DNA from: a bacterium
GTDB lineage: Bacteria > JAAXHH01
Direction: 5' to 3'
Length of the DNA: 64,000 bases
Assembly (NCBI GenBank): GCA_965240335.1
Contig: CBDEKM010000008.1
Span: 311,072-375,071, forward strand
The translations under genes and the position numbers were made by a program. The notes under the pieces are model-generated. The model had not been told where the DNA came from, ran no database searches, and saw nothing but the letters and a program-made list of their open reading frames with translations. Each line of letters opens with the position of its first letter. The stretch's first letter is position 1. Of the stretch, positions 27,461 through 60,506 are shown piece by piece.

Positions 27461-27505
27461 GCATTGAGCCACGATAAGGATTCTACGCGACCAGGACTCC
27501 ACAAT

Positions 27506-42128: not shown

Positions 42129-42158
42129 ACCGACGACGAGGGGTTGGGATTGCCTCGA

Positions 42159-42452
42159 TCAAGTGAGATCACCCTGCCTTTCGCGAAACACGCTTTCCAG
42201 CAAGCCTTCAATTCGGGATACCCTGCTGTCGATATTCGAAACCCTACCGCTCAACTCCCGTATTTCAGATCTCAGTTCACCGGTTTCTTTGTTCATTTCG
42301 GATCGCAGGCTGCCGATCTCAATTCGCATATCGGATCGCAGGCCGCCGATCTCGTTGCGCATTTCTCTCGAATCCGCCTTGAGATCACGAAGCACGTAGA
42401 CGAGTACGGCAATCGTAACGGCCGGTGGAAGCCAGACTGCCAATGCATCCAT
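42159..42452 (-). CDS. N-terminally TM-anchored protein made of 11-residue repeats (xEIGxLRSxMx)
   Basis: 97 aa. TM residues 5-21, then about 6 consecutive 11-mers (ADSREMRNEIG GLRSDMRIEIG SLRSEMNKETG ELRSEIRELSG ...). Confidence 0.5.
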   Translation of the reverse strand: MDALAVWLPPAVTIAVLVYVLRDLKADSREMRNEIGGLRSDMRIEIGSLRSEMNKETGELRSEIRELSGRVSNIDSRVSRIEGLLESVFRERQGDLT

Positions 42453-42456
42453 GTGC

Positions 42457-42999
42457 TCACTCCTGTTTTCGGATCAGCATCCTCAACTCGCCTTCGACGC
42501 GTCCCAACCTGCCGTTCAATTCGTGGATGTCGGATCTGATCGCACGGTGCTCACTCTGCATATCATTCCTGATCGTACGGTGCTCACTCGTCATATCATT
42601 CCTGATTGCTTCAATTTGGTCCTTCAACTCAGTTCTGATCGCCTTGTGTTCACTGCGCATTTCTACCCTGATGGCGTTGAACCCGTCGTGCATTTCCGAT
42701 CTGAGAGTTTCGATCTGGTCCTTCATGTCACTTCTAATATCGCTGTGGTCGCTTTGTATTTCATTTCTGATCGCCTTGTGTTCACTGTGCATTTCTATTC
42801 TGATGGTGTTGAACCCGTCGTGCATTTCCGATCTTAGCGATTCAGTTTGGTCATTCATATCGGTCCTGATCGCCTCGAAACCATCTCTCATTTCGGCACG
42901 TAGCACGTTTGTAGATTCGTCCTGCCAGGTGACTACTGCGACGACAAGCAAGCCGGCTGCTGCCACGGCCTGGATGACGATAATGAGTTTCTGATACAT
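42457..42999 (-). CDS. N-terminally TM-anchored, His-rich protein made of 13 near-perfect 11-residue repeats (x[ED]MxxxxxxIR)
   Basis: 180 aa. TM residues 5-25, then AEMRDGFEAIR TDMNDQTESLR SEMHDGFNTIR IEMHSEHKAIR NEIQSDHSDIR SDMKDQIETLR SEMHDGFNAIR VEMRSEHKAIR TELKDQIEAIR NDMTSEHRTIR NDMQSEHRAIR ... The DNA shows about 120-bp internal near-identical repeats. Confidence 0.55.
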   Translation of the reverse strand: MYQKLIIVIQAVAAAGLLVVAVVTWQDESTNVLRAEMRDGFEAIRTDMNDQTESLRSEMHDGFNTIRIEMHSEHKAIRNEIQSDHSDIRSDMKDQIETLRSEMHDGFNAIRVEMRSEHKAIRTELKDQIEAIRNDMTSEHRTIRNDMQSEHRAIRSDIHELNGRLGRVEGELRMLIRKQE

Positions 43000-43216
43000 G
43001 TTACCCCACGAACTGAAACAAGTGCTGTAAACACGCTTCCTGCTTAGATCAGTCGAAATACGCGGTGGAATCTCGTAAGCTGTCTACTCAGCCCATCATC
43101 ACACGCCCACTGTAACCTGGGTATTGTTCTCTAGAGTCTTGGTCCCACTCCAACCACATATACGTCCCAACCTTCCCATGCATCCGAAGTCGGATAAAGA
43201 GAGGTCTCTTCTCGGC

Positions 43217-43302
43217 GGACCGCGGCGAATCCGAGCAAGGACTGATCGAGGTGCGCAGCCGACCGCAACGAATCCAGGCTAAGACTGATCGCAGTGCTCA
43301 TC
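43217..43302. repeat. Imperfect 43-bp tandem direct repeat x2 (GACCGCNNCGAATCCNNGCNAGGACTGATCGNNGTGC...) in a divergent intergenic region
   Basis: Units at 43217-43259 and 43260-43302, about 70% identical, with a further partial CGAATCC/GAAATCC motif downstream. Confidence 0.4.
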
Positions 43303-43580
43303 GAACCCGGCGGCAAATCCGGACAGCGAAATCCCGCACCTAAACTTAATGCTTATTTTTGAGTGAGTAAAAACTGTTAAACAGGTCTTGACTTACGCTA
43401 TTACTACTCAACACTATTTAGTAAACATATCTTGACTTAATCTACATTTAGTATAGTAATTCATTTATAATTACAAATACACCGCACGGCGCGGCAGAAA
43501 CAGTCACATCAATACGGTAAGACCGGCCGACAACAATGTGGTATGACCGTTCGCCAGACTACCGGGGAAAGATCTTTGAA

Positions 43581-44702: not shown

Positions 44703-45326
44703 ATTGAAAGGAGGGAGGAATCTGAAATCACGAAAAGAGCCATATTTGTCTATACATCGGGAAAACGATCAAATAAGAGAAGAATCATAAAAAAGTTTTT
44801 GACTGAAGCATATTTACGGTAATAAATACTTGATTTAACAATGGGGAGCTGGTAAACTATCCCATGATTAATCCCACACTTGACAAAAATACAAAAAAGT
44901 TATTGACTTTGGCGCAGTTACGGGATTATTTACTTGATTTTGTAGCACGGTCCATATATACTAAGTCTTGTTTTCCGAAGAGGTTTCAGTCACGGAAAGC
45001 AAAATTGACACACGGTGAAGTAAGCGATACCCTTGCACCTCTTGGAGAGGTTGCAGGATAACGGGTAACGGTTTTCGTATGTTTGCAGTTGCGGTAATGA
45101 CCTTAAGATCATTCAGGTGTAAGAGCGTTTTACTCCACAACGCGCACGTCATTCTAAGGAGAATCAATATATGTGTGTTAGTCCGGTGCGGCCTGAAGCT
45201 AAACACGGTTCTCATGTTGCATTCTCCCGACGGGAATCCCGGTCTGATCATGCCGGCTTTTCCGCAAAGCGTATAGAAATGTGTGATCATCCATCCTTTC
45301 TTATAAGGTTTAAGGAGAATTTACAT

Positions 45327-48300
45327 ATGCGGTACATTTCCAGGTTCAAGAACTCTATACGTGCTTCGAGCGTTTACAGCCTGGCGTTCATGTTTGTGTT
45401 CGCCTTAGCTGCGAACCTGACGACGTACGAAGAAGCCCACGCACAGCGTTCGATTCAGCTGATTGTGGATGCGCCGGACCCTGCGGAATTGATGGAGACC
45501 GGTACTGCGACTACCGTTACGCTGTCAGCTGAGCATGTTGTAATAGATGAGGATTTAGCACTACCGACCGAAGCGATCACTATTACAGTAAAGTTACCCG
45601 TGCTCGAGGGAATGAATCCGGATTATGCCATCACAGACACTGATGGTACCGATGACGGAATGGTGGAGTTAACGCTCACTGGGGCTAGTTCCAATACGGT
45701 TAACTTCACCATAACCCCCCGTGACGATTCTGTCTTTGAAGCGGATAGGACAATTTCATTAACTGGTGAGGCCTCGGGATATGTCGTGCTTGCCGCCAAA
45801 ATCAAACTGCTGGATGACGATCATCAGCTGGAATTGTCAGTCGAACCATCTACGGTAAATGAGGATAAGGGCGAGCAGACGGTGATCGTGACCGCAAACC
45901 TCACTGAAGACGCGCCGTTAGCTACCACTGTGCCGTTGACGATATCTCCTGCGTCGACGTCGTTTTATACTCTTAGCGCTACCGCGCTGTCGATTCAGAT
46001 ATCGGCAGGTTCGAGTTCAGGTACGGCTAAGTTTAACATCACGCCTGTCGACAACGACACTTACGATGGTAACCAGAAGATCAAGGTTGATCTTAATGAT
46101 GCTCAGAGCAATCTGGCACTTAGAGAAGCGAAAGAGATCGTGCTGGCGGACGACGAAAGCCCACCCGCCTTGGATCTCTCCGTATCTCCTTCCAGTATTA
46201 AAGAGGCCAATGGCGCTCAGACAGTGACGGTGACCGCGAAGTTGACAGATGGCGTGCTGTTGTCGTCATCTACAGTGGTCACAGTCAATATCGCTGCCAA
46301 TGACGATCAGTATACTCTGAGCACCAAAGTACTTGCAATAACGATCAGGGCCAAACGTGATTCGGGGAGTGCTAGGCTTACTATTACTCCTGAGCCGGAT
46401 GGAACTTACGAAAGGCACATGGCCATTGGTCTGACCGGTAGAGCGACCATATTGGATGACGTAAACATCAGCGATACTGCGACGGTAACGTTGTTGGATG
46501 ATGATCAGGAAGTTACACTGTCGGTGTCGCCTGCGACGGTAAAAGGCGCAGCGGCGGAGGTAGTCATCACGGCCTTGTTGGATCGGCCAGCCAGGGATGC
46601 CAGTGGTTTCGACGTACCCATAACCATCGGTGAAGCAAATCCCTCCGCATATTCTTTGTCAGCTGAAACTGATGTCGGGCTATCCGGTAATGGATTGACG
46701 ATCACGGTTCCGACTGGATCCTCGATGCGATCAGTGACGGTGACTGTTACACCGGTTGATGTATATGCCGCCGGTAACGCGCAATACAATCGCGATGTAG
46801 AGATTGGCGTTGATGTCGCTGACGCTGGCCCGCTGGGGAGATCAGCCAAGATCACGCTGAAGGACTCGATCGACCGGCCGAAGCTGGAACTGGCGGTGAC
46901 GCCGGAAACTGTGATGGAAGAGCCGGCGATGGACGACGATGCCAATACTGATGGCGTTCAAACTGAATTAACCATCACGGCTACGCTGGACGGCGGGACT
47001 TTTCAAGGCGATTTTGGTGTAGTTGTAGAAATCTCCGAGGATGATGATTTCTATACCGTGTCTTCTAAAGAAGTAACCTTGACTCCCGCCGGTTCTTCGT
47101 CTGGACCATGGACGGGAACAGTGATGGTCACGCCTGATCCGGACAGCAAGTTCGAGGCGTACCAGACCATCTCCTTCTCGGCCAAAGCGACCGAAGCGAG
47201 TCCACCTGACGGAAGTGACGCGATCGAGTTAACGGCAAGCGATACGGTTCAGTTGCAGGACAACGATCATCACGTGACCTTGGCTGTAGAGCCTTCGTCA
47301 GTGACCGAAGAAGGCGGAGAACAGACGGTGATCGTGACCGCAGAACTGACCGCTCCTGCACCGATAGCGACCACAGTGCCGGTGACCTTGTCGCCCACGA
47401 CCTCATCGTTCTACAGTCTGGACGCTCATGTACTGTCAATCCAGATTGGAGCCGGTGCGAGTTCCGGTACGGCGAAGCTGAACGTCACGCCAGTCGACAA
47501 CAACACCTACAATGGTACACAGAAGATCAAGGTTGACATTGCAGACTCGAGTCCGCTGGTACTTCGCGCTACTAAAGAGATCGCGGTGACCGACGACGAG
47601 AATCTACCGGTGATGTCATTGTCGGTGGATCCGGATGAGATCACCGAGGCCGGTGGCGCGCAGACGGTGAGCGTAACGGCTAAGCTGATGGACGGCGTGA
47701 TACTGTCGACGCCCACGGTGGTGACGGTGAAGGTAGTCGACGATGACGAGCAGTATGCGCTGAGCTCGAAAGAGTTCGCGATCACGATTCCTGCCAACCA
47801 GGCAACCATGTCGGCGAACCTGCTCATTACACCTGAACCCGATGGGACCTACGAATCCCACCTGGGTATCGGTCTGTCGGCCGAAGCGACCATCAAGGAC
47901 GGCGATGATGACGTCAAGCTCAGCGCTGCCACGACGGTAACGCTGCTGGACGATGATCAGGAGGTTACGCTGTCAGTGTCGCCTGCGACGGTGAAGGGCG
48001 AAGCGACAGATGTAGTCATCACGGCCACACTGGACCGGCCAGCACGAGGCGTTAACGGTCTCACGGTTCCCGTAATGATCGCGACGGGTGGTAGCCATAG
48101 CTTGACAGATGAAGATGGAAATGCCATAGCTAATGGCCTCGTGAACATCGTGGTCCCAACGAGTGCTTCCGCACAGTCGATTACGGTTACGGTGACACCT
48201 GCCGGTGATTACGCCACCGGAACCGGCTACAATCGGGACGTGGGAATTGACGTTACGGTCACCAGTGCCAGCAACCTGCTGGGCCGGGAGGCGACGATCA

Positions 48301-51300
48301 CGTTGAAGGACTCGATCGACCTGCCGAAGTTGGAACTGGCGGTGACGCCGGAAACTGTGATGGAAGAGCCGGCGATGGACGACGATGCCAATACTGATGG
48401 CGTTCAAACTGAATTGACCATCACCGCCACACTGGAAGGCGGAACCTTTGGGACTGATTTCGAGGTAGTCGTAGAAATCTCCGAGAATGAGGATTTCTAT
48501 ACCTTATCCGCAAACGAGGTGACCTTTACGATTAGCGCGAATGGCACGTCTGGAACCGGAACGGTGAACATCACGCCTGACCCGGACAGCAAGTTCGAGG
48601 CGTACCAGACGATCTCGTTCTCGGCCAAGGCGACTGAAGATGTTACTGAAGATGCGATCGAGTTGACGGCAAGCGATACGGTTCAGTTGCAGGACAACGA
48701 TCATCACGTGACCCTGTCCGTAGAGCCTTCGTCAGTGACCGAGGATGGCGGAGAGCAGACGGTGATCGTGACTGCGGAACTGACCGCTCCTGCGCCGATA
48801 GCGACCACGGTGCCGGTGACCTTGTCGCCCACGACTTCGTCGTTCTACAGTCTGGACGCTCATGCGTTGGCGATTCAGATTGGAGCCGGTTCGAGTTCCG
48901 GTACGGCGAAGCTGAACGTCACGCCAGTCGACAACGACACCTACAATGGCACCCAGAAGATCAAGGTTGACATTGCAGACTCGAGTCCGCTGGTACTTCG
49001 CGCATCTAAAGAGATCGTGGTGACCGACGACGAGAATCTGCCGGTGATGTCTTTGTCGGTGGATCCGGAGGAGATCACCGAGGCCGATGGCGCGCAGACG
49101 GTGAGCGTGACGGCGAAGCTGATGGACGGCGTGCTGCTGTCGACGCCCACGGTTGTGACGGTGAAGGTGGCCGACGATGACGAGCAGTACGCACTGAGTT
49201 CGAAAGAGTTCGCGATCACGATTCCTGCCAACCAGGCAACCATGTCGGCGAACCTGGTCATTACACCTGAGCCCGATGGGACCTACGAATCCCACATGGG
49301 TATCGGTCTATCGGCCGAAGCGACCATCAAGGACGGCGATGATGACGTCAAGCTCAGCGCTGCCGCGACGGTAACGTTGCTGGACGATGATCAGGAGGTC
49401 ACGCTGTCGGTGACTCCAGGTACTGTGAAGGGCGACGCGACAGAGGTTATCATCACGGCCACGCTGGACCGGCCGGCTCGGGGCAACAACGGTCTCACCG
49501 TACCCGTAATGATCGGGGCTTCAGGTGACAGCGGTTATAGTTGGTCAGCTGAAGGTGTAACCAGCCCAAGTCCTGGCGATGTGGTGAACATCGTGGTCCC
49601 AACGAGTGCCTCTGAGCAATCCATGGCGGTGACGATTACTCCTACTGGTGATTACGCCACCGGAACCGGCTACAATCGGGACGTGGGAATTGACGTTACG
49701 GTCACCAGTGCCAGCAACCTGCTGGGCCGGGAGGCGACGATCACGTTGAAGGACTCGATCGACCTGCCGAAGTTGGAACTGGCGGTGACGCCGGAAACTG
49801 TGATGGAAGAGCCGGCGATGGACGACGATGCCAATACTGATGGCGTTCAAACTGAATTGACCATCACCGCCACACTGGAAGGCGGAACCTTTGGGACTGA
49901 TTTCGAGGTAGTCGTAGAAATCTCCGAGAATGAGGATTTCTATACCTTATCCGCAAACGAGGTGACCTTTACGATTAGCGCGAATGGCACGTCTGGAACC
50001 GGAACGGTGAACATCACGCCTGACCCGGACAGCAAGTTCGAGGCGTACCAGACGATCTCGTTCTCGGCCAAGGCGACTGAAGATGTTACTGAAGATGCGA
50101 TCGAGTTGACGGCAAGCGATACGGTTCAGTTGCAGGACAACGATCATCACGTGACCCTGTCCGTAGAGCCTTCGTCAGTGACCGAGGATGGCGGAGAGCA
50201 GACGGTGATCGTGACTGCGGAACTGACCGCTCCTGCGCCGATAGCGACCACGGTGCCATTGACCTTGTCGCCCACGACTTCGTCGTTCTACAGTCTGGAC
50301 GCTCATGCGCTGGCGATTCAGATTGGAGCCGGATCGAGTACCGGCACGGCGAAGCTGAACGTCACGCCGGTCGACAACGACACCTACAATGGCACCCAGA
50401 AGATCAAGGTTGACATTGCAGACTCGAGTCCGCTGGTACTTCGCGCTTCTAAAGAGATCGCGGTGACCGACGACGAGAATCTGCCTGTGATGTCTTTGTC
50501 AGTGGATCCGGAAGAGATCAACGAGGCCGATGGCGCTCAGTCGGTGAGCGTAACGGCTAAGCTGATGGACGGCGTGCTGCTGCAGACGCCCACGGTTGTG
50601 ACGGTGAAGGTGGCCGACGATGACGAGCAGTACGCACTGAGCTCGAAAGAGTTCGCGATCACGATTCCTGCCAATCAGGAATCCATGTCTGCGAACCTGG
50701 TCATTACGCCGATACCGGATGGAGCGTACGAAGCTCACATGGGTATCGGTCTGTCGGCCGAAGCAACCATCAAGGACGGCGATGATGACGTCAAGCTCAG
50801 CGCTACCGCGACGGTAAAGCTGCTGGACGATGATCAGGAGATCACGCTGGCGGTGTCGACCGCGACGGTGAAGGGCAAGGCGACGGACGTAGCCATCACG
50901 GCTATGCTGGACCGGCCGGCCCGCGGTACTAACGGTCTCACCGTACCCGTAATGATCGGTGCCGACGGCGATGATCAGTATACTTTGTCGTCTGAAGGTA
51001 CCCCCAGTCTCGCACCAGGTGGCACGGTGAACATCGTGGTCGCCACAGGTACATCCGCGAAATCGGTAACTGTAACGGTGACGCCAGCCGAGACCTATGT
51101 CGCAACTGACATGAATTACGATCGTGATGTAGGGATCGATGTTACGATCGCTGATGGCACAGCTTTGCTGGGCCGGTCGACGAAGATCACGCTGAACGAC
51201 TCGATTGATCTGCCGAAGCTGGAACTGGCGGTGACGCCGGATACTGTGATGGAAGAGCCAGCAGTGGATGCTGATAATGATGCAGCTAATGGCGTTCAAA

Positions 51301-54300
51301 CGCGGCTGACCATCATGGCCACGCTGGACGGTGGAACCTTTACGAACAATTTCGATATTGTCGTAGAAGTTTCACAGGATACTGATTTCTACAGCGTGTC
51401 CTTGGAAGAGGTAACATTAACTGGTTCTGCTAACGGACCCTGGACCGGAACGGTGGATATCACGCCTGATCCGGACAGCAAGTTCGAGGCGTACCAGACA
51501 ATATCGTTCTCTGCCGAAGCGACCGAGCAGAATCCTCCTGCGGGAAGCGATGCGATCGAGTTGACGGCAAGCGATAAAGTGCAGTTACGTGACAATGATC
51601 ATCACGTGACGCTGGCTGTAGATCCAGCTTCAGTAAATGAAGAAGACGGAGTACAAACGGTAGAGGTGACGGCGATGTTGACCGCACCTGCGCCTGTAGC
51701 TACCACGGTGCCGGTGACGTTGTCGCCTGCGACCTCGTCGTACTACAGTCTGGACGCTCATGCACTGGCAATAGAGATCGGGGCCGGTTCGAGTGAAGGC
51801 ACGAAGGAACTTAACATCACACCGGTCGACAACGACACCTACAATGGCACCCAGAAGATCAAGGTTGACATTGCAGATTCAAGTCCCCTGGTACTTCGCG
51901 GTTCGAAAGAGATCTCGGTAATTGACGACGAAAGCCTGCCGGTGCTCGCACTGACAGTGGATCCGTCCGAAGTTAACGAGGGTGGTGGCGCTCAGTCAGT
52001 AAGCGTGACTGCTGAACTGGTCGACGGTGTCGTGTTGCAGACGCCTACAATCGTAACCGTGAAGGTGGACGCCGATGACGATCAGTATGCGTTGAGTTCA
52101 AAAGAGTTTGCGATTACGATTCCAGCCAATCGGGATTCGAGATCCGCGGACTTGATTATTACTCCTAAGTCTGATGGATTGTTCGAAGCTCACATGGCAA
52201 TAGGTCTGTCGGCAGAAACAACCATCAAAGACGGCGATGATGACGTAGATCTCAGCGCTGCAGCGACGGTAACGCTGTTGGACGATGATCATGAAGTCAC
52301 GCTATCGGTTTCACCTGGTGAGGTGTCGGAAGTTGGCGGAAGCTTTCCTGTGACTGTAAAGGCAAGATTGAATAGTCCCGCAAAGAGTGACCTCACGATA
52401 CCGGTTGAGATCGAAACATATGATGAGAATGCGAATTCTCATCCTATCGGGTTTACCGTGACGGATACTGACAACACACCGAATGACGGTATGGTTGATA
52501 TTTCCATTGCCGCTGGAAAGTCAGAGGCGTCAACTACGGTGATGATCGCCGCGACATACAATGCCGATCATACCGAAAACGCTGTCATTAACGTAACAGG
52601 AGGAGATATCGCATTATCGGTTAGACCAACAACAATCTTGATCAGAGACTACGAACAGGTCTCTATACAGTTATTGGCTAGCCATCCCAGTATCACTGAA
52701 GCCGGAGGTTTACAGACTGTTGAGATCACGGCTGAAATAACACCCAATGCAATCGGTGATGATGTAGCTATCAGTCTAGCAGTCGGTGGACAGGCGACAC
52801 TGAATGAAGATTTCGGCGTTAGTGGTTTGCTGGAAATCGAAATCGGTGCCGGTAGTACCGAGGGATCGACGGAACTTACCTTCATACCGGTTGACGATTT
52901 TGTGAATGAGTTCAACGAGACGATTACGGTTTCTGGTTCAACAGTTGGCGGACATAGTGTTAGCTCGGTATCCATTGTGTTGGCTGATAACAATGAGATA
53001 CCACTGGCTAGTATCTCGGCGCCTTCAGTTGAACTTAGCGAAGCTGATGATGCCGTAACCGAGATCGCAGTAACTGCTACGCTGGCTGGAACGAGTGGTG
53101 AACCTATTAATGTAGTGCTTGATATTAATGGTTCGGCCACGGCCGGTGTTGACTATGAGGTTAGTGGAGATCTCAGGTTCTCGATAAATCCCGGAGACAG
53201 CAGTTACACGGCTAATGTCGCAATCACGGTCTTGGATGATGCGCTCTATGAGGGTAATGAGACCGTTGTGATCGAAGCCAGCGCGTCCTTGGGAGATCTT
53301 GAACTACCCAATAGATCTCAACCATTGAGATATATGATTATTGACAACGATTCGGCACCGATGATTGCCCTCTCAGTGGATGTAGAAACAATAAATGAGG
53401 GTGACGAAGCGACGGATGTGACCATCACTGCCACCGCATCCAGTGCTAGTGCCGTCAACATTCCAATCACGTTGGCCAAGCCTGGTACGGCCGTAATTGG
53501 TGAAGACTTCATGGTCTCGTCCGAACAGGAAGATTTCATCATAATCGCAGGCGAAACTACAGCAACGAAGGTAGTGACGATCACGCCGATCGATGATGAA
53601 ATCTATGAAGGTGACGAGCACTTCATGGTCAACGGTACGGTACCGGGTTCCGACGGTGAAATAGACGTCGACGGCACGATGATCACGCTGACTGACAACG
53701 ATGATGTGCCGACGGTTGCACTGACCGTGGAACCCGATATGATTGCTGAGGGTAGTGAAGTCGAATTCACGATCACGGCCACGCCGTCTCACATGAGTTC
53801 CATGCCGATTACAATCGTACTGGACAAGTCGGGTGGATCGGCTACGCTTGGCGAGGATTTCGAGATTGTAGCGGCTACCGAAGGCGAGTACGTGATCGAA
53901 GCGATGGATTCGTCCGCTACGAAGATGGTCACGCTTTCGGCTATAGCCGATATGCTCTACGAGCAGGAAGAGATCATCGTTGTGGGTGGAATGTCAATGG
54001 CAGGTGATTCGGAAGGCATAGCGGTTATGACTGACGAGATCACGCTGACCGACGGCGATCCGATGCCGATGGTCACGCTGATGGCGGACATGGAGTCGAT
54101 CAATGAGAACGGCGAGGCCGTGGACGTAACGGTTACGGCCATGCTTTCCGGTTTGAGTTCCATGCCCATCACAGTGGAACTGGCCAAGTCCGGTTCGGCC
54201 ACGAAGGGCGAGGACTACACCGTAACCGGCGAAGGTGCAATCACGGTTGCTGCCGGCGATGAAATGGGTATGACGATACTGACGATCGTTCCGGTAGATG

Positions 54301-57300
54301 ACGATGTCTACGAACGCGATGAGATGATTGTCATAGGCGGTACGGCCGGCGATGAAATAGCCCAAGCCGCGTCGATCACCTTGGTGGACGACGATCCGAT
54401 GCCGATGGTGGTACTGATGACGGACGTGGTGTCTATCACCGAGAACGGTGGAGCCCAGGAAGTGACGGTAACGGCAACGCTGTCCGGCTTGAGTTCTTTG
54501 CCCATCACGGTTGAACTGGCCAAGTCCGGTTCGGCCACGAAGGACGAGGACTACACCGTAACCGGCGAAGGTTCCATCACGGTTGCTGCCGGCGATGAAA
54601 TGGGTATGACGATACTGACGATCGCCCCGGTAGATGATGATGTCTACGAACGCGATGAGATGATTGTCATAGGCGGTACGGCCGGCGATGAAATAGCCCA
54701 GGCCGCGTCGATCACCCTGGTAGACGACGAAACGAAGCCGATAGTGGAACTGATGACGGACGTGGTGTCTATCACCGAAGACAGTGGAGCCCAGGAAGTG
54801 ACGGTAACGGCAACGCTGTCCGGCTTGAGTTCTATGCCCATCACGGTTGAACTGGCCAAGTCCGGTTCGGCCACGAAGGGCGAGGACTACACCGTGACCG
54901 GCGAAGGTTCAATCACGGTTGCTGCCGGCGAAGAAATGGGTATGACAATTCTGACGATCGCCCCGGTAGATGATGTTGTCTACGAACGCGATGAGATGAT
55001 TGTCATAGGCGGTACGGCGGCCGGTGACGAAGTGGCTACGACAGCATCGATCACGCTGGTCGACGACGAAACCATGCCTACGATTGCCCTTTCAGTAGAC
55101 ACTGATTCCGTGATGGAGGATGGCGGCGATCAGGAGGTCGTGGTTACCGCGACGGCATCCGGCTTGAGTTCCATGCCCATCGATGTTGTACTGGCGAAGT
55201 CCGGTACGGCCATTAAGGGCGAGGATTACACTGTGACCGGCGATGGTACGATCACGGTCGCGGCTCTTGCGATCGACGGCGTTACGACGCTGACAATCAC
55301 ACCTGTAGACGACGACGTCTATGAGAATGATGAGACGATCGTGGTTGGCGGTGAAGGTGTGTTGGAATCGGCAACGGTGACGCTGGTTGATGACGAAACC
55401 ATGCCTATGTTCACGCTGATGGCGGATCCGTCGGCGGTCATGGAGAATGCCGGTCCTACGCCTGTCGTAGTGACGGCGACCGCTTCGGGACTTAGTTCGA
55501 TGCCCATGACCCTGACGCTCCTTCCGTTACCGGATCAAGGCACCATTACGATTGGTGAAGACGCGGGCGTGACGGGTGATCTGTTCATCACAGTTGTCCC
55601 CGGTGCGCTGGAAGGCAGCACGACACTGACGGCATTGGTTATTGACGACGATATCTACGAGGGCGACGAGTACGTTGTGATCGTTGGAAATATAGGTGAT
55701 ATGGTCACGCCATCCATTACACTGACCATCATCGATGACGAAATGCAGCCGACGGTCACGCTGTCGCTGGATCCCGAGGCCGTGGAAGAAGGTGGCGGAG
55801 CGCAGCCCTTCACCGTATCGGGTGAAGCTTCCGGCAGAAGTTCAATGGACATGACAGTCATGCTCGGTCCGTTGCCGACGAGTACGGTAACGCTGGGTGA
55901 AGACGGCATAGTCGATGGAACCATGTCGTTCGTCATATCCGCGCTGGAGACCGAAGGCAGCACGACGCTGACGGCCGTGCCAGCGGATGACGATCTCTAC
56001 GAGACGACGGAGTACCTGGTCGTCGGCGGTAGTGTGAACGGTGTACCTACTGCCAACGCGGTGACGCTGGCGATCATGGACAACGACTCGCCGGACGTAG
56101 CGTTGAGCGTGAGTCCGACAGCTATTCGTGAAGACGGCGGCGCCCAGACGGTCACCGTGGAAGTGGTGATGTCAGGTATACCAGTACCCGTACCGACAGA
56201 TATTTCGCTGGCCCTGTCGGGTACGGCCGGTAACGCCGATTACACCATGTCCGGTACGCCGACTCTGCAGATTGCCGCCGGTGAAACGACAGCGTCGACG
56301 CAGTTGACTTTCGCGGTTGTTCCCGACGATATCTACGAGCCAAGTAACGAGACCATCGTACTAACGGCGAATTGGAACGCCACGAATATCGGTTCAGCTA
56401 CAATTAACGTGATCGACGATTACGCTCCGCCTTCGGTAATTAGCGCGCTTCCCGCGATATCATTGGAAGCCGGTGATTCGAGGCAAATGGATGTGGCTGG
56501 TACTTTCAGCGGCCGGGTTCTGGTGTTCGCGGCAACATCTTCGGATGTCGGCATAGCCACTGCAACGCTTTCTGGATCGGCACTGACGATCGAGGGAGTG
56601 CGCAAGGGTGCGGCGCGGGTCACGGTCACGGCGACTAATGACGCGTCGTCCGCGAGTTACGATATAGATGTAACCGTCACGGCAATTGCTGCAGAGCGGG
56701 AAGTCTATACCGACATCCTGGCGGCTATGGCACGGAGCATCATGTCGAGCGTCTCGCAGACGATCGGCGGTCGGTTCTCCGTTGGCGCAGCGGAACGTCA
56801 GATCGCGCTGGCCAACAGGCGTGTGGACGGAATGGCGGCCGGTTTGGAAGCCATGATCAGCCTGTCCGGTGCTCAGTCGACAAGAAAGTACGGTATCACA
56901 GATGATACCACGAATCGGCTTAGCAGGCAGCCGGTCTCCACCCGTGAACTGATGCGCGGTACGTCCTTCTACTACGCCCTCGACGATGCACCTCAGGGCG
57001 GTACGAACGGCGGATTGAGCTTCACGATCTGGGGAGCTGGTGACTGGAATGCCTTCGAAGGTGCGCATGATGTGGGCACCAGTTACGACGGAACGGTGAC
57101 CTCCGGCTATCTCGGTATCGATGTATCGAAGACCGCCAGCTGGATCGCCGGTGTGGCTGTCGGACGTACCATGGGTACTTCGGACTACGATGTAACCGTC
57201 ACTGACGGAACGTTGGAAGCCACCCTGAACAGTGTGTATCCTTACGTACACTGGACGGGTCCCGGTTGCTGCATCGAAATCTGGGCTATCGGTGGTTTCG

Positions 57301-58121
57301 GTACGGGTGAAGCCGAAGTAAGCGACGGTACGAGCGACCTGTCCATGAGTCTGGGTATGGTCGGTGTGCGCGCCCAGTTGGTCGGCGCTGCATCGGGCGG
57401 TCTGGACCTCGACCTGATCGGTGACGCAGGAATGACCAAGCTGTCGACGGCTGACAGCGAGTCCGCTTCCCTGAGCGACCTGGAAGCCAGCGTACAGCGC
57501 GTACGCGTGGGTCTCGAAGCTTCACGTACCTCCGACATGGGCAACGGCATGCTGGTAACGCCTTTCGCCCAGGTAGCCGGTCGGTATGACGCAGGTGACG
57601 GTGATACGGGTAACGGTCTTGAAGTTGCCGGTGGTCTTCGGATTGCCGGTGGCAGGGCTGGTCTCGAAGCCCGCGGTCGCCTGCTTGCCATGCATACTGG
57701 CGAAGAAGTCAAGGAGCACGGCGTGTCGGTGGTTGCTTACGTGAGGCCGATGGGCGCCGGCGGACAGGGTCTGTCGATGGCTATCGCTCCTCGTCTCGGC
57801 GCTGATACCGAAATGTCCAGTAACATCTGGCGCGAAGAACCGATGAACGACGTTAGAAGTTCGTCTCGGTCAGGCGTCGGTATGAAAGCTGAAATCGGTT
57901 ACGGTCTCCTGACTCCGATGATGAGCAGCATCGTGGTGACTCCGTTCGGTACGATGGACATGGCCGGTGATGACCAGCGCCGCATGCGTCTTGGCGCACG
58001 GTTCGGTTCCATCGGCGACACGACTACCGTACTGAGATTCGAGCTCGTTGGCGAGCGCATCGACGGCAACGGCCGTGCGACGGATCATCGCATCGGCCTG
58101 CTCGGTAGGATGAGCTTCTAA
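45327..58121 (+). CDS. Giant (4264 aa) surface protein: signal peptide, >35 Calx-beta/Ig-like repeat domains, Big_2-like domain, C-terminal autotransporter-like beta-barrel
   Basis: AAGGAG SD 9 nt before ATG 45327. Signal peptide MRYISRFKNSIRASSVYSLAFMFVFALAANL. Recurrent Calx-beta signatures (GEDYTVTGEG..ITVAAGDEMGMTILTIVPVDDDVYERDEMIVIGG). Penultimate Big_2-like unit. Final ~430 aa show alternating-hydrophobic beta-strand patterns and end in ...LLGRMSF. GC about 52% versus about 63% in flanks. Confidence 0.75.
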   Translation: MRYISRFKNSIRASSVYSLAFMFVFALAANLTTYEEAHAQRSIQLIVDAPDPAELMETGTATTVTLSAEHVVIDEDLALPTEAITITVKLPVLEGMNPDYAITDTDGTDDGMVELTLTGASSNTVNFTITPRDDSVFEADRTISLTGEASGYVVLAAKIKLLDDDHQLELSVEPSTVNEDKGEQTVIVTANLTEDAPLATTVPLTISPASTSFYTLSATALSIQISAGSSSGTAKFNITPVDNDTYDGNQKIKVDLNDAQSNLALREAKEIVLADDESPPALDLSVSPSSIKEANGAQTVTVTAKLTDGVLLSSSTVVTVNIAANDDQYTLSTKVLAITIRAKRDSGSARLTITPEPDGTYERHMAIGLTGRATILDDVNISDTATVTLLDDDQEVTLSVSPATVKGAAAEVVITALLDRPARDASGFDVPITIGEANPSAYSLSAETDVGLSGNGLTITVPTGSSMRSVTVTVTPVDVYAAGNAQYNRDVEIGVDVADAGPLGRSAKITLKDSIDRPKLELAVTPETVMEEPAMDDDANTDGVQTELTITATLDGGTFQGDFGVVVEISEDDDFYTVSSKEVTLTPAGSSSGPWTGTVMVTPDPDSKFEAYQTISFSAKATEASPPDGSDAIELTASDTVQLQDNDHHVTLAVEPSSVTEEGGEQTVIVTAELTAPAPIATTVPVTLSPTTSSFYSLDAHVLSIQIGAGASSGTAKLNVTPVDNNTYNGTQKIKVDIADSSPLVLRATKEIAVTDDENLPVMSLSVDPDEITEAGGAQTVSVTAKLMDGVILSTPTVVTVKVVDDDEQYALSSKEFAITIPANQATMSANLLITPEPDGTYESHLGIGLSAEATIKDGDDDVKLSAATTVTLLDDDQEVTLSVSPATVKGEATDVVITATLDRPARGVNGLTVPVMIATGGSHSLTDEDGNAIANGLVNIVVPTSASAQSITVTVTPAGDYATGTGYNRDVGIDVTVTSASNLLGREATITLKDSIDLPKLELAVTPETVMEEPAMDDDANTDGVQTELTITATLEGGTFGTDFEVVVEISENEDFYTLSANEVTFTISANGTSGTGTVNITPDPDSKFEAYQTISFSAKATEDVTEDAIELTASDTVQLQDNDHHVTLSVEPSSVTEDGGEQTVIVTAELTAPAPIATTVPVTLSPTTSSFYSLDAHALAIQIGAGSSSGTAKLNVTPVDNDTYNGTQKIKVDIADSSPLVLRASKEIVVTDDENLPVMSLSVDPEEITEADGAQTVSVTAKLMDGVLLSTPTVVTVKVADDDEQYALSSKEFAITIPANQATMSANLVITPEPDGTYESHMGIGLSAEATIKDGDDDVKLSAAATVTLLDDDQEVTLSVTPGTVKGDATEVIITATLDRPARGNNGLTVPVMIGASGDSGYSWSAEGVTSPSPGDVVNIVVPTSASEQSMAVTITPTGDYATGTGYNRDVGIDVTVTSASNLLGREATITLKDSIDLPKLELAVTPETVMEEPAMDDDANTDGVQTELTITATLEGGTFGTDFEVVVEISENEDFYTLSANEVTFTISANGTSGTGTVNITPDPDSKFEAYQTISFSAKATEDVTEDAIELTASDTVQLQDNDHHVTLSVEPSSVTEDGGEQTVIVTAELTAPAPIATTVPLTLSPTTSSFYSLDAHALAIQIGAGSSTGTAKLNVTPVDNDTYNGTQKIKVDIADSSPLVLRASKEIAVTDDENLPVMSLSVDPEEINEADGAQSVSVTAKLMDGVLLQTPTVVTVKVADDDEQYALSSKEFAITIPANQESMSANLVITPIPDGAYEAHMGIGLSAEATIKDGDDDVKLSATATVKLLDDDQEITLAVSTATVKGKATDVAITAMLDRPARGTNGLTVPVMIGADGDDQYTLSSEGTPSLAPGGTVNIVVATGTSAKSVTVTVTPAETYVATDMNYDRDVGIDVTIADGTALLGRSTKITLNDSIDLPKLELAVTPDTVMEEPAVDADNDAANGVQTRLTIMATLDGGTFTNNFDIVVEVSQDTDFYSVSLEEVTLTGSANGPWTGTVDITPDPDSKFEAYQTISFSAEATEQNPPAGSDAIELTASDKVQLRDNDHHVTLAVDPASVNEEDGVQTVEVTAMLTAPAPVATTVPVTLSPATSSYYSLDAHALAIEIGAGSSEGTKELNITPVDNDTYNGTQKIKVDIADSSPLVLRGSKEISVIDDESLPVLALTVDPSEVNEGGGAQSVSVTAELVDGVVLQTPTIVTVKVDADDDQYALSSKEFAITIPANRDSRSADLIITPKSDGLFEAHMAIGLSAETTIKDGDDDVDLSAAATVTLLDDDHEVTLSVSPGEVSEVGGSFPVTVKARLNSPAKSDLTIPVEIETYDENANSHPIGFTVTDTDNTPNDGMVDISIAAGKSEASTTVMIAATYNADHTENAVINVTGGDIALSVRPTTILIRDYEQVSIQLLASHPSITEAGGLQTVEITAEITPNAIGDDVAISLAVGGQATLNEDFGVSGLLEIEIGAGSTEGSTELTFIPVDDFVNEFNETITVSGSTVGGHSVSSVSIVLADNNEIPLASISAPSVELSEADDAVTEIAVTATLAGTSGEPINVVLDINGSATAGVDYEVSGDLRFSINPGDSSYTANVAITVLDDALYEGNETVVIEASASLGDLELPNRSQPLRYMIIDNDSAPMIALSVDVETINEGDEATDVTITATASSASAVNIPITLAKPGTAVIGEDFMVSSEQEDFIIIAGETTATKVVTITPIDDEIYEGDEHFMVNGTVPGSDGEIDVDGTMITLTDNDDVPTVALTVEPDMIAEGSEVEFTITATPSHMSSMPITIVLDKSGGSATLGEDFEIVAATEGEYVIEAMDSSATKMVTLSAIADMLYEQEEIIVVGGMSMAGDSEGIAVMTDEITLTDGDPMPMVTLMADMESINENGEAVDVTVTAMLSGLSSMPITVELAKSGSATKGEDYTVTGEGAITVAAGDEMGMTILTIVPVDDDVYERDEMIVIGGTAGDEIAQAASITLVDDDPMPMVVLMTDVVSITENGGAQEVTVTATLSGLSSLPITVELAKSGSATKDEDYTVTGEGSITVAAGDEMGMTILTIAPVDDDVYERDEMIVIGGTAGDEIAQAASITLVDDETKPIVELMTDVVSITEDSGAQEVTVTATLSGLSSMPITVELAKSGSATKGEDYTVTGEGSITVAAGEEMGMTILTIAPVDDVVYERDEMIVIGGTAAGDEVATTASITLVDDETMPTIALSVDTDSVMEDGGDQEVVVTATASGLSSMPIDVVLAKSGTAIKGEDYTVTGDGTITVAALAIDGVTTLTITPVDDDVYENDETIVVGGEGVLESATVTLVDDETMPMFTLMADPSAVMENAGPTPVVVTATASGLSSMPMTLTLLPLPDQGTITIGEDAGVTGDLFITVVPGALEGSTTLTALVIDDDIYEGDEYVVIVGNIGDMVTPSITLTIIDDEMQPTVTLSLDPEAVEEGGGAQPFTVSGEASGRSSMDMTVMLGPLPTSTVTLGEDGIVDGTMSFVISALETEGSTTLTAVPADDDLYETTEYLVVGGSVNGVPTANAVTLAIMDNDSPDVALSVSPTAIREDGGAQTVTVEVVMSGIPVPVPTDISLALSGTAGNADYTMSGTPTLQIAAGETTASTQLTFAVVPDDIYEPSNETIVLTANWNATNIGSATINVIDDYAPPSVISALPAISLEAGDSRQMDVAGTFSGRVLVFAATSSDVGIATATLSGSALTIEGVRKGAARVTVTATNDASSASYDIDVTVTAIAAEREVYTDILAAMARSIMSSVSQTIGGRFSVGAAERQIALANRRVDGMAAGLEAMISLSGAQSTRKYGITDDTTNRLSRQPVSTRELMRGTSFYYALDDAPQGGTNGGLSFTIWGAGDWNAFEGAHDVGTSYDGTVTSGYLGIDVSKTASWIAGVAVGRTMGTSDYDVTVTDGTLEATLNSVYPYVHWTGPGCCIEIWAIGGFGTGEAEVSDGTSDLSMSLGMVGVRAQLVGAASGGLDLDLIGDAGMTKLSTADSESASLSDLEASVQRVRVGLEASRTSDMGNGMLVTPFAQVAGRYDAGDGDTGNGLEVAGGLRIAGGRAGLEARGRLLAMHTGEEVKEHGVSVVAYVRPMGAGGQGLSMAIAPRLGADTEMSSNIWREEPMNDVRSSSRSGVGMKAEIGYGLLTPMMSSIVVTPFGTMDMAGDDQRRMRLGARFGSIGDTTTVLRFELVGERIDGNGRATDHRIGLLGRMSF
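46491..52263 (+). repeat. Four tandem 1443-bp (481-aa) super-repeats inside the giant gene; copies 2 and 3 include >550 bp of 100% identity
   Basis: Units start with LLDDDQEVTLSVSPATVKG... at about 46491, 47934, 49377 and 50820. Identical spurious antisense ORFs at 48504-48707 and 49947-50150 (offset exactly 1443) confirm the period. Flanking repeat sequence is about 97% identical. Confidence 0.85.
54056..55060 (+). repeat. Three near-identical tandem 330-bp (110-aa Calx-beta) repeats, within a longer array of diverged copies (about 53340-56100)
   Basis: PMVTLMADMESINENGEAVDVTVTAMLSGLSSMPITVELAKSGSATKGEDYTVTGEG...ASITLVDDD repeated with only a few substitutions. Antisense ORFs 54308-54538 and 54644-54874 are near-identical. 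Confidence 0.8.
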
Positions 58122-58201
58122 GGACCGAAACAAAAATACCTGTTCGGGGTCAGCCTTAAGCGCCGACCCCGAAGGGCGTTTCTCGAAACGCCTGGAACAT
58201 G

Positions 58202-58260
58202 AAAGGGCGTTTGCAGGATCCGGTAAAAGACCAACCGGAAAATGCAGACGCCCTTTTCTT
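58202..58260 (+). terminator. Candidate intrinsic terminator of the giant gene: 14-bp stem (AAAGGGCGTTTGCA / TGCAGACGCCCTTT, one G-U), structured 26-nt loop, U-tract
   Basis: Arms at 58202-58215 and 58243-58256 followed by TTTTCTTT. Two shorter GC hairpins sit upstream (58145-58171, 58175-58192) without U-tracts. Confidence 0.4.
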
Positions 58261-58437
58261 TGGTATCTGTTCTTCAGTAACTTGGCCGTTTAACTGCGGA
58301 AAATGTAATGCGGGACCTGAGGCAGGAATGGGGCTCACCAAACGGGAGGAATTGAAGAAAATCGGTTTAAGGAAACCCAACGCTGTGGTCAATACACAGA
58401 GGTTGACTGTTTAATCTTCAATCGATATTTCGTTTTG

Positions 58438-60348
58438 TTAAAGGAACTTTACTGCCGTGTTTTTCGGATGAGGGTATACGTCTCGAGATATTCGATAGGA
58501 TCTTAATGCCCCGATCATATCACCCTTCTTCTGTAGAAACTCTCCATTAAGGTTGTATAGCCAGGCCTGCATCGGTTTGGACGTCGCTTCGCGCTTTCTG
58601 TATTCGGCTAGCGATATCCAATCGGAGACCTGTTCCCAGTAGGTTTGATTGCCGTATCGAAGCAGGGATGTTGCCATACCGATCAGACCGGAGTATTGCT
58701 CCGCCGCAAGGTCTATCAAGCCGCCCATCGAATCGAGGTACAGCGGATTTCCAGAATAGGTGACTATGCCCAAATACCGGCCGTATTCAAACATCAACTG
58801 ATTTCGAAGGTGTCGTTCCCAACGATCGACCGGTTGACTGTGGACAAGGCGCGTGAAGAATTCCTGTCCGCCGTCGTGGGGGTATAGTTCTATCGTTCCG
58901 GATTCAATCTCCCTTATGGCTTCACACAGAAAGCCGTAGTACCTGACACAACGGATGGGAAACAAACTCGTGTCTCCAATCACGAAAAGTCTGCGGTCGT
59001 TACTGTCGATGTACCGTTGTAGAATTTCCTTCCGTATTGGGATTTTCTCGAATGGACCGTAGAGGCGGTTGCTGTATATGAGACCGTCCAATGCATAGAA
59101 ATCGACATCCGGGCGGAGGTTTTCCACGTACTTGAAATACCCGATCGGCAGGACATTGTCGCCGTTTACGAACAACGCCGTGTTTTCTGGCAGAAAATCC
59201 AGGATAGTCTTTACGTATTATTCGGCGAAGTCACTCTCCGAACGGTCATTTGATTCCAGATTTCGATGCACCGACCAGCCGGCCATCGTAGTGAGGAAAA
59301 CCGCCGATAGATCTGCAATCAACAGTGACCTTTGGACGGTCTGAAAATCGCTATTCTGAAAAAATCGAAATCGTACCTGATGAGGGTGATCAATACGATA
59401 CTGTTGCCGAGTAAAACGAGTAGTCCCGACACAACGTGATAAACCCGCCGATTTTTCAAGAGGACTACAAGACCGATCACGGCGAGTGCGAAACCTGGAA
59501 GTGTCAGTTGCCAGACCAGCTCGTTGCCCAGCCACTGCAAGTATTCCAACCTGTCGTGCCACCCCGCGCTTGGGCTTGCGTCAGCGTAAGCGTATCCCCT
59601 TCGACTTACGTAGATCCAGAACTTCCTGAGTGAATTGATCGGACCGTAAAAGCTGATGGGTGTAATCTGGTTCGAGCGCCATACCATCCAGATGTACGGC
59701 ACGATGGTGGACAGCAGCAAAGCGCCGATATGCCGGGTCAGATTCCGATATAGGAAACGCCTTACTGGTACGGCCGGAAAAACCAATCCAGGCGTGGACA
59801 GTATCATCAGCGGCCAGTGATTGGCGAGGCTGAACCCGTAACATATGGCGCCCATGGTCCAGACCCAGGTTCGGTTTGGTTGGCGGACGCCGTACAGCAC
59901 CAGCCCTATACAGTCCGAATAAAAACAGCGCGTTTAACGTGTAGACCTCGGTGATAATCGCCTGGGACCAGAAGTGCTCGGAGGCTGCGAACAGCCAGGA
60001 CGAGGCGAGGGACGGAACCATGGATACACTCATCAGACGGGCGCACAGGTAAACACATCAGCATGCCAATGTGCCCAGCACCGCGCTGGACAGATGTCCC
60101 AGGAAAGCTGGACTCCCGAACGGAAGCTGAGTAAAGAGATAGACGATGAGATTATGAACAGGGTATTCGGGTGGGTGGGCTACACCGAGATGCGCGCCGG
60201 CCATGAGAAACAGCCCGTCGTCTTCCAACACCACCGTCAGGGGCATCGTAAAAACATATAAGTCCAAAGGTCCAAAAACTGATGCGGCGAGCGCCGGTCC
60301 ATCGTTATTGGCGTCGAACCACTTCGAACCGTCACGGTTTCGATTCAT
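58438..60348 (-). pseudogene. DUF2723 (GT117/TMEM260-like putative protein O-mannosyltransferase) gene, fragmented by 2 in-frame stops and 2 frameshifts
   Basis: N-terminal fragment with the family signature GAHLGVAHPPEYP (60058-60348). In-frame TGA at 60058-60060 (...GTLAC*CVYLCARLMSVSMVPSL...). Frameshift near 59890. Frameshift at an A7/T7 run near 59350. In-frame TAA at 59218-59220 (...SDFAE*YVKTILDFLPENTALFVNGDNVLPIGYF...). Lower GC (~48%). Confidence 0.55.
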
Positions 60349-60506
60349 GGGGTGGTATCCTTAGATATCTTCCCTTTGCTGTTGACACTTATCTTAACTT
60401 ATTACAATATATGTAGGTTAAATGCTCTGAAAAGGCGGAATATCCGGCTATCCTGATGGTGGCCCTTCATATCTTGATGTCAGATGTAGTCCTAAGGGAG
60501 AAGACC

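Follow-up and report, generated by a model that had tools for sequence, protein, structure and literature searches.

The giant gene and its product

The window analysed here is a stretch of 64,000 nucleotides (nt) of contig CBDEKM010000008.1 (assembly GCA_965240335.1, forward-strand positions 311,072 to 375,071), and the subject of this study is a giant gene within it, together with the AT-rich leader that precedes the gene. Positions are counted from the first letter of the window, and features lie on the plus strand unless stated otherwise. A single open reading frame (ORF) spans 45171–58121. The coding sequence was assigned to 45327–58121 (12.8 kb, stop codon included); it is intact and encodes a putative autotransporter adhesin of 4,264 amino acids (aa). 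The ATG at 45327 serves as the working start: an AAGGAGA Shine-Dalgarno sequence lies ahead of it and a signal peptide opens there. A called gene on a 405-kb public contig has the identical 4,264-aa product, and no record holds a longer version. One ORF and the exact product in public data confirm the giant 12.8-kb gene that had been proposed from the letters of the window alone (hereafter the original prediction).

The product begins with a Sec-type signal peptide (aa 1–40; 45327–45446), read directly from the sequence as MRYISRFKNSIR / ASSVYSLAFMFVFALAA / NLTTYEEAHA with Q following. The peptide MRYISRFKNSIRASSVYSLAFMFVFALAANLTTYEEAHA, again followed by Q, contains four basic residues, a 17-residue hydrophobic core and an AHA/Q site, and its DNA is 82–86% identical to that of the orthologues. 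Two arrays of β-sandwich domains, a Big_2-like domain and a C-terminal anchor of ~470 aa follow. A GC-rich, 12-bp hairpin at 58143–58173, 22 nt past the stop codon, has a T-run on the minus strand only and is a possible transcript end.

The anchor is a member of the autotransporter barrel family

The autotransporter model PF03797 matches the last 473 aa with 34.1 bits (cut-off 26) and also matches 21 of 23 relatives; scored on the whole 4,264-aa protein, it reaches only 22.1 bits. A second autotransporter model, TIGR01414, gives 20.2 bits on the anchor (cut-off 16). Structure prediction gives β-strands for the last ~370 aa, and the C-terminus reads ...LLGRMSF, in line with the barrel-like C-terminus that had been described. 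The anchor, searched with HMMER against Protein Data Bank (PDB) chains both alone and as a profile, gave no autotransporter match, so a fold comparison was needed. Two AlphaFold models were built: model 1 covers the anchor (23-sequence alignment; predicted local distance difference test, pLDDT, 68) and model 2 the barrel region alone (80-sequence alignment, pLDDT 78). With model 1, the top 13 Foldseek matches are all autotransporter β-domains or full-length autotransporters. The ranking for model 2 is the same, with classical autotransporter barrels best, and barrels of 14–18 strands score far lower. The predicted models show the fold of a 12-stranded outer-membrane barrel, and the canonical 12-strand β-barrel was placed at aa 3898–4139 (57018–57743). 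Passing both family cut-offs and best matching classical autotransporter barrels in both models, the anchor supports the type-V-like, self-exported adhesin of the original prediction. The outcome that was to count against that proposal, a C-terminal sorting domain of the type IX secretion system (T9SS) or another kind, did not occur: the C-terminus is a ~370-aa β-barrel region, and scans of the giant protein gave no match to the ~80-aa T9SS sorting domain.

A conserved linker helix (aa 3793–3818; 56703–56780) precedes the barrel, with the family motif LAAMGRxxLSSVxxTIGGRF, invariant residues and a pLDDT of 93. Autotransporter structures that contain a helix gain 22–31 aligned residues when the model includes the helix, and BrkA gains none; this difference suggests that the helix is modelled inside the barrel pore. 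A connector of ~80 aa (56781–57017), modelled at low confidence (pLDDT 27–37), joins the helix to barrel strand 1.

A conserved tail extends past the canonical barrel

The barrel is followed by a conserved C-terminal tail of 125 aa (57744–58118), in which the family alignment and model 2 (pLDDT 64–87) show six amphipathic β segments and an invariant terminal aromatic residue (...HRIGLLGRMSF). The tail ends in F, Y or W throughout the family alignment, and Pfam gave no match on the final 121 aa. A tail profile retrieved 4,011 clusters at 50% identity from 1.84 billion representatives, 1,555 of them at E ≤ 1e-10. In full-length proteins among the matches listed (up to 5,938 aa), the tail lies at the extreme C-terminus. 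The tail-bearing clusters are nearly all unnamed metagenome proteins.

Both AlphaFold models contain 18 strand segments. PF03797 runs collinearly over the first twelve of them (model positions 2–76 and 161–210), with ~46 residues left for positions 211–255. In five better-scoring relatives, PF03797 aligns from position 1 to ~204–215 of 255, and ~165 more residues follow. These strands raise an alternative to the canonical barrel, namely an enlarged barrel of 16–18 strands, formed by a 12+6 hairpin expansion through the six C-terminal strands and giving bulky repeat passengers a wider pore. The 18 segments have the correct in/out parity in both models. The last six strands alternate hydrophobic residues with Arg, Glu or Gly, carry a GYG motif and close on the invariant F/Y/W, which resembles the Bam β-signal; the exact C-terminal position of the tail among the matches listed from the 4,011 clusters points the same way. 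A weak similarity of strands 8–9 to strands 14–15 (hhalign E 0.0037) would fit a hairpin duplication, and the Pfam alignments of the relatives, which stop at ~204–215 of 255, imply that the canonical last strands are atypical.

We nevertheless consider an enlarged barrel unlikely. The collinear mapping fits strands 1–12 to the whole 255-position model. A home-made mean-field coupling analysis (228 sequences, effective number 129) yielded no signal between strands 1 and 18: the value was 0.08 for the 1–18 closure versus 0.17 for 1–12, both within noise. This analysis was noisy as a whole, with adjacent strands at 0.19 against a background of 0.13±0.05, and neither closure stood out. Precedent also disfavors extra strands, because the AIDA-type β-domain in PDB entry 4MEE was reportedly solved as 12-stranded. 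Long β-domains of this type had once been suspected to hold extra strands (PMC3419190).

The passenger is an array of Calx-beta-like domains

In a Pfam search of the whole protein, PF03160 (Calx-beta) scores 104.6 bits (cut-off 27), with its best stretch at aa 2554–2653; three stretches alone pass individually. Domains were counted with a profile that took this best stretch as its seed and was iterated over the protein's own sequence (self-profile). It detects 31 homologous domains of ~110 aa between aa 64 and 3681 (E 1e-16 to 1e-35), and a weak 32nd match overlaps the Big_2-like unit. The previous figure of more than 35 Calx-beta/Ig-like domains was an overcount; the self-profile gives 31 Calx-beta-like domains and one Big_2-like domain. 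The aligned 31 domains share the Calx-beta pattern, including an acidic TPxDDxxYE segment. Scanned singly with Pfam, 8 of the 31 match Calx-beta (best E 6.4e-9) and 7 match LapA. A profile of the 31 domains found no Calx-beta structure in the PDB and matched only Ig-like entries weakly. The array is probably of the calcium-binding type, and the rod that it would form is probably calcium-stiffened.

The N-terminal part of the array (45447–52646) comprises 20 divergent Calx-beta/LapA-like β-sandwich domains, which the self-profile and lag analysis resolve into five four-domain super-repeats of ~481 aa (1.44 kb). The DNA copies of the super-repeat are 66–100% identical; copies 3 and 4 are nearly identical and reach 100% in 300-nt windows. 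The C-terminal part (52647–56396) consists of 11 canonical Calx-beta domains identified by PF03160 and the self-profile, and contains 3–4 copies of a 336-nt tandem unit at 54038–55348. The Big_2-like domain, which adjoins the anchor (aa ~3700–3790; 56424–56696), agrees with the Big_2-like unit noted previously: it lies below the Pfam gathering score here (E 0.0037) and above it in paralogue L014, where the domain at the same position scores 31.2 bits. The unit also gives a weak profile match to the Big_2 domain of phage lambda gpV.

Passenger and anchor differ strongly in conservation. The orthologue in L002 has 2,944 aa and 21 domains with a period of 436 aa, versus 31 domains in the window gene. 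The two proteins are 28–40% identical in the passenger and 82% identical in the barrel. At the passenger start, protein identity to the orthologues is 39–46% and the DNA is unalignable. As far as the sequences indicate, variation would arise from change in repeat number (31 versus 21 domains) and fast passenger divergence, not from on/off switching. Recombination among the near-identical 1.44-kb and 336-nt repeats, together with the fast divergence, could generate both antigenic and length variation.

Relatives of the anchor occur in several phyla

A profile search retrieved 119 relatives, whose listed passenger domains are Calx-beta, LapA, Cache, PKD, He_PIG, fn3 and cadherin repeats. No β-helix (pertactin-type) domain appears in the available precomputed Pfam annotations of these 119, which are blank for some of them. 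Some relatives are named 'autotransporter domain-containing protein [Gemmatimonadetes bacterium]' in the source records, and the 90%-identity cluster that includes the neighbouring lactonase carries the name Gemmatimonadota. A genome scan with an alignment of 9 closer sequences located anchor relatives in metagenome-assembled genomes (MAGs) labelled Gemmatimonadota, 'Latescibacterota', Pseudomonadales/Azotimanducaceae, Acidobacteriota and Alphaproteobacteria. The relatives come from SB06xx, IRC, COS, APA and Plut MAGs, and many bin names refer to sponge or coral; the SB06xx bins are listed as sponge symbionts (PMC7883664). A literature search found no report of Calx-beta autotransporters in sponges.

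Other passengers are joined to the same anchor. L014 (4919–11398), P0066–P0075, P0087 and others carry about seven tandem Cache domains (sCache_2/dCache_2) ahead of the Big_2, helix, barrel and tail cassette, and such Cache-passenger paralogues occur in the same and related genomes. Surface display of Cache domains by a type V anchor, as these sequences suggest, would be unusual. In a 'Latescibacterota' MAG relative (L051, 4181–11479), 16 He_PIG Ig domains precede the anchor. The whole-protein Pfam scores of L051 to DDE_Tnp_IS240 and DUF1093, with no single stretch passing, are probably repeat-driven artefacts.

We tentatively propose, at odds well below even, that the anchor cassette (Big_2, linker helix, ~80-aa connector, 12-strand barrel and six-strand 125-aa tail) represents a large undescribed branch of type V secretion, specialised for tandem β-sandwich and Cache passengers. 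In its strongest form, the tail would either enter the barrel wall, giving more than 12 strands, or act as a second membrane or periplasmic export module.

Composition and synteny

The giant gene has a GC content of 55.5%, 4.9 points below the 60.4% of the rest of the window. A gap of 8–11 points exists only relative to the two upstream genes, and the downstream flank is itself at 50–53%. The earlier figure of about 10 points below the flanks therefore describes the two upstream genes and fails for the rest of the window and the downstream side. GC at third codon positions (GC3) is 0.62 in the giant gene versus 0.72–0.89 in neighbouring genes, with fewer C-ending and more T/A-ending codons.

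The original prediction took this composition as a sign of acquisition. A recently acquired foreign island would be consistent with the low GC3, with a β-domain family found in several phyla that share a habitat, and with the adjacent 2.3 kb (58122–60455), which is low in GC, contains the remains of a gene and has no counterpart in L001 or L002. The conservation of the locus argues against it. The thiolase–leader–giant gene order is kept in four other contigs (L002, L056, L057 and L058), and the downstream L-PSP, CxxCxxCC and SelA genes are kept in L001 and L002. Four-fold degenerate sites are 57–59% identical between the window and L002, so the lineages are well separated. The syntenic L002 orthologue shows the same depression (GC3 0.66 versus 0.76–0.83), from which we judge low GC3 to be a long-standing property of the gene. 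An amino-acid composition rich in T, A, V, D, S and G explains part of the bias. Recent acquisition is thus improbable and not supported; the anchor cassette may plausibly have spread between phyla at an earlier time.

Several features of the surrounding DNA were also recorded. On the minus strand at 58438–60348, within the 2.3-kb stretch downstream of the giant gene (GC 50–53%), a gene for a TMEM260-like/DUF2723 protein O-mannosyltransferase is broken across at least three frames and is probably a pseudogene. In L001 and L002, which lack the 2.3-kb downstream stretch, the L-PSP gene lies within ~175 nt of the autotransporter gene. Upstream, a low-GC patch (51–55%) occupies 42000–43500, between an acyl-CoA synthetase gene and the thiolase gene; a 180-aa ORF on the minus strand there (42457–42999) has only sub-threshold coiled-coil and apolipoprotein-like matches. 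A second large surface-type gene at 27464–33526 encodes 2,020 aa, and its GC3 (0.68) is also below that of its neighbours. The protein contains about six Big_2 domains, long leucine-rich-repeat arrays and a weak M66 peptidase match, and it looks like the eukaryote-like repeat proteins reported for host-associated bacteria.

A proposed model for export and surface display

We interpret the gene product, with a probability of roughly 0.8, as a Sec- and Bam-dependent monomeric type Va autotransporter adhesin of a Gemmatimonadota bacterium, whose β-sandwich passenger folds out from C to N into an adhesive rod. The N-terminal signal peptide would take the protein through Sec. The 12-strand barrel at the C-terminus would then be placed in the outer membrane by the Bam machinery, its pore holding the conserved linker helix. 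The 3,750-aa passenger would be threaded out C-terminus first, powered by the stepwise folding of β-sandwiches outside the cell, in the manner of intimin-type inverse autotransporters (PMC6555100): the Big_2 domain that adjoins the anchor would emerge first, followed by Calx-beta domains 31 to 1. The predicted product is a cell-anchored rod of 32 domains, on the order of 100 nm long and probably stiffened by calcium. Its most plausible targets would be host matrix or other cells in a presumed marine animal (sponge) habitat. The inverse arrangement of type Ve was not found: the barrel is C-terminal, and the N-terminus consists of a signal peptide followed by repeats.

Several points weigh against this interpretation. 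Export, surface display and adhesion are all steps that we infer. The passenger is devoid of the β-helix and autochaperone typical of type Va; Pfam found no pertactin, AC or PATR match in it. To our knowledge, a 12-strand pore that exports a 3,750-aa β-sandwich passenger has a precedent only in the inverse (type Ve) class. The placement of the helix in the pore is drawn from differences in aligned length between two models, and the ~80-aa low-confidence connector separates this presumed pore helix from strand 1, whereas the two are adjacent in solved autotransporters. The protein also runs 125 aa, with six membrane-like strands and a terminal Phe, past barrel strand 12; the terminal Phe and the alternating IGLLGRMSF thus sit 125 aa after the strand mapped to canonical strand 12. 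Finally, RNA structure in the leader finds support neither in covariation nor in unusual stability (see below).

A different route was also considered, in which the protein is an adhesin of the type I secretion system (T1SS), similar to LapA and RTX proteins, or another surface protein outside type V, and the barrel does no more than anchor it in the membrane or is porin-like. Giant calcium-binding adhesins with tandem Ig-like domains typically leave the cell through a T1SS, and the LapA matches in 7 of the 31 domains fit that class. The clear N-terminal Sec signal peptide contradicts this reading, as do the best structural neighbours, which are autotransporter barrels and not porins. No RTX or T1SS-related Pfam or NCBIfam match was obtained in the protein, and no T1SS genes were found among the nearby genes scanned (38994–62795). 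We regard T1SS export as very unlikely and retain the type Va model.

The leader contains a predicted promoter and 5´ untranslated region, both conserved

The intergenic leader between the thiolase gene and the giant gene (44703–45326; 624 nt, 40.4% GC) is homologous in L002, L056, L057 and L058; the orthologous leaders were taken from ENA contigs. Its length and AT-richness agree with the ~620-bp leader described at the outset, and the several TTGAC elements reported there are present as four plus-strand copies, at 44799, 44880, 44903 and 45005. A promoter-like element of 48 nt occurs twice. Copy 1 (44789–44836), with an A-tract, TTGACT and TTTACGG, reads TACTTGATTT and is 77% identical to copy 2 (direct repeat D1). 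Copy 2 (44893–44940) lies 104 nt downstream and is conserved in all five orthologous leaders. The best sigma-70-type promoter, TTGATT–17 nt–TATACT (44934–44962), is the sole plus-strand match in the promoter scan. Its –10 block, ATATATACTAA, is invariant in the five orthologues, and TTGAT[AG]–17 nt–TATACT also occurs ahead of the distant orthologues L003 and L005, whose leaders are ~130 nt long. A candidate upstream promoter, TTGATT (44830)–17 nt–TAAACT (44853), has 8 of 12 matches and is below the scan threshold. We propose that the gene is expressed from the conserved sigma-70-like promoter TTGATT–17 nt–TATACT, duplicated upstream, via a 5´ untranslated region (UTR) of ~360 nt.

This predicted UTR (44969–45326) is conserved at the nucleotide level. 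Over the part that starts with copy 2 of the 48-nt element and ends at the ATG, leader identity to the four orthologues is 84–85%, compared with 84–89% for the thiolase coding DNA and 57–59% for four-fold sites (window versus L002). Purifying selection on the UTR is clear from this comparison, and the region appears to be a conserved promoter and 5´ UTR with a putative regulatory role. Rfam searches gave nothing, either for the whole window at gathering thresholds or for the leader at E ≤ 1, and no tRNA or tmRNA was found. Minimum free energy folding of the leader shows no unusual stability (z-score –0.85). RNAalifold predicts 110 pairs, of which 4 are compensatory, and the covariation term is unfavourable. 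The 21-nt invariant motif of the leader had no match in a JGI metagenome scan.

Short duplications occur near the start codon. A Shine-Dalgarno sequence plus ATG (repeat D2; 45155–45173, TAAGGAGAATCAATATATG) opens a non-conserved frame. It is an 84% identical duplicate, 156 nt upstream, of the Shine-Dalgarno and ATG of the gene (TAAGGAGAAT...ATG). The frame from this upstream ATG meets a TAG stop in L002 and L057 and joins the main ORF in the window, L056 and L058; across 45155–45329 in the orthologues, a 1-nt indel or a 7-nt tandem duplication sets the ATG in frame or before the TAG. A 52-codon in-frame N-terminal extension from the ATG at 45171 was considered and rejected as coding, with the frame broken in two of five orthologues. 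Substitutions in the 52 codons upstream of 45327 show no third-position bias, and the orthologues carry indels and a stop there. A 19-mer that contains TGATCA is duplicated at 45242 and 45281.

The proposal of complex, possibly phase-variable regulation is partly supported in its first part, given the duplicated 48-nt element and the selected ~360-nt UTR; phase variation is not supported, as neither a simple-sequence tract nor a convincing invertible element was found. A phase-variation switch acting through slipped-strand repeats or an invertible promoter would suit a long, AT-rich leader with a duplicated promoter-like element and a weak 15-nt, 80% imperfect inverted repeat (44800–44814/44978–44992), but can practically be dismissed, with homopolymers of at most 6 in the leader and none of 8 or more in the gene, no repeats of three or more units in either beyond ATATAT, ACACAC, GTGTGT and TGTGTG, no recombinase domain in a Pfam scan of nearby ORFs, and five collinear orthologous leaders in a single orientation.

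Significance

Type Va autotransporters are textbook β-helix exporters, and proteins of this kind are already known; the passenger type, the unannotated 125-aa barrel tail and the strongly conserved 5´ leader are new. The gene is one of a sizeable clade, for the most part unannotated, whose members come from several phyla of uncultured marine bacteria, some of them associated with sponges. In this clade, the classical barrel order is combined with tandem Ig-like, Calx-beta, fibronectin, cadherin and even Cache sensor domains. If the tail alters the barrel or its assembly, it bears on how large passengers pass through the narrow autotransporter pore. With a predicted Calx-beta rod of ~100 nm on a putative sponge symbiont, one may ask if the rod binds the arms of the host aggregation factor, which also consist of Calx-beta domains, or imitates them. 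The leader, non-coding yet conserved at the level of coding DNA beside a fast-evolving surface gene, is a candidate regulatory element in Gemmatimonadota, a phylum with almost no genetics.

Comparison with known systems

Compared with type Va proteins (Hbp, NalP, AIDA-I, EstA, BrkA and EspP), the giant protein has 32 tandem β-sandwich domains in place of a β-helix with an autochaperone, a connector of ~80 aa between the helix and strand 1, and a conserved 125-aa tail without a Pfam match past strand 12. Relative to solved autotransporters, the anchor found no sequence-level match among PDB chains. The type Va passenger is usually a β-helix, with EstA as the sole solved exception, and Ig-like repeat passengers are a hallmark of the inverse (type Ve) class, in which sequential domain folding is thought to power secretion (PMC6555100, PMC9289746). 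The giant protein resembles intimin and invasin of that class in its 12-strand barrel and long attached passenger of tandem Ig-like domains.

In length (thousands of residues), tandem Ig-like/LapA/Calx-type domains and acidic inter-domain motifs, the protein also resembles LapA and the RTX-type ice-binding and biofilm adhesins. Unlike these T1SS substrates, which have a C-terminal RTX region and no Sec signal, it possesses a signal peptide and a barrel and gave no RTX match.

The arm of the sponge aggregation factor, MAFp4, is an extracellular rod of ~29 Calx-beta domains that functions in cell adhesion, varies in repeat number and evolves fast (PMC11670116). The 31 Calx-beta-like domains described here, from a lineage with relatives in sponge MAGs, resemble it in shared domain type. 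MAFp4, unlike the giant bacterial protein, is secreted by a eukaryote as a glycoprotein and has a wreath-domain partner. Mimicry of, or interaction with, a host matrix of the MAFp4 type is speculation.

The size of the protein is not exceptional in itself, as recorded autotransporters reach 10,429 aa (PMC3419190). As in BigE and other very large autotransporters, the passenger has grown by internal repetition on a standard barrel. Unlike BigE, for which repeats of predicted β-strand structure are described in a BrkA-like passenger viewed as β-helical (PMC3419190), the passenger here is composed of discrete Calx-beta sandwiches.

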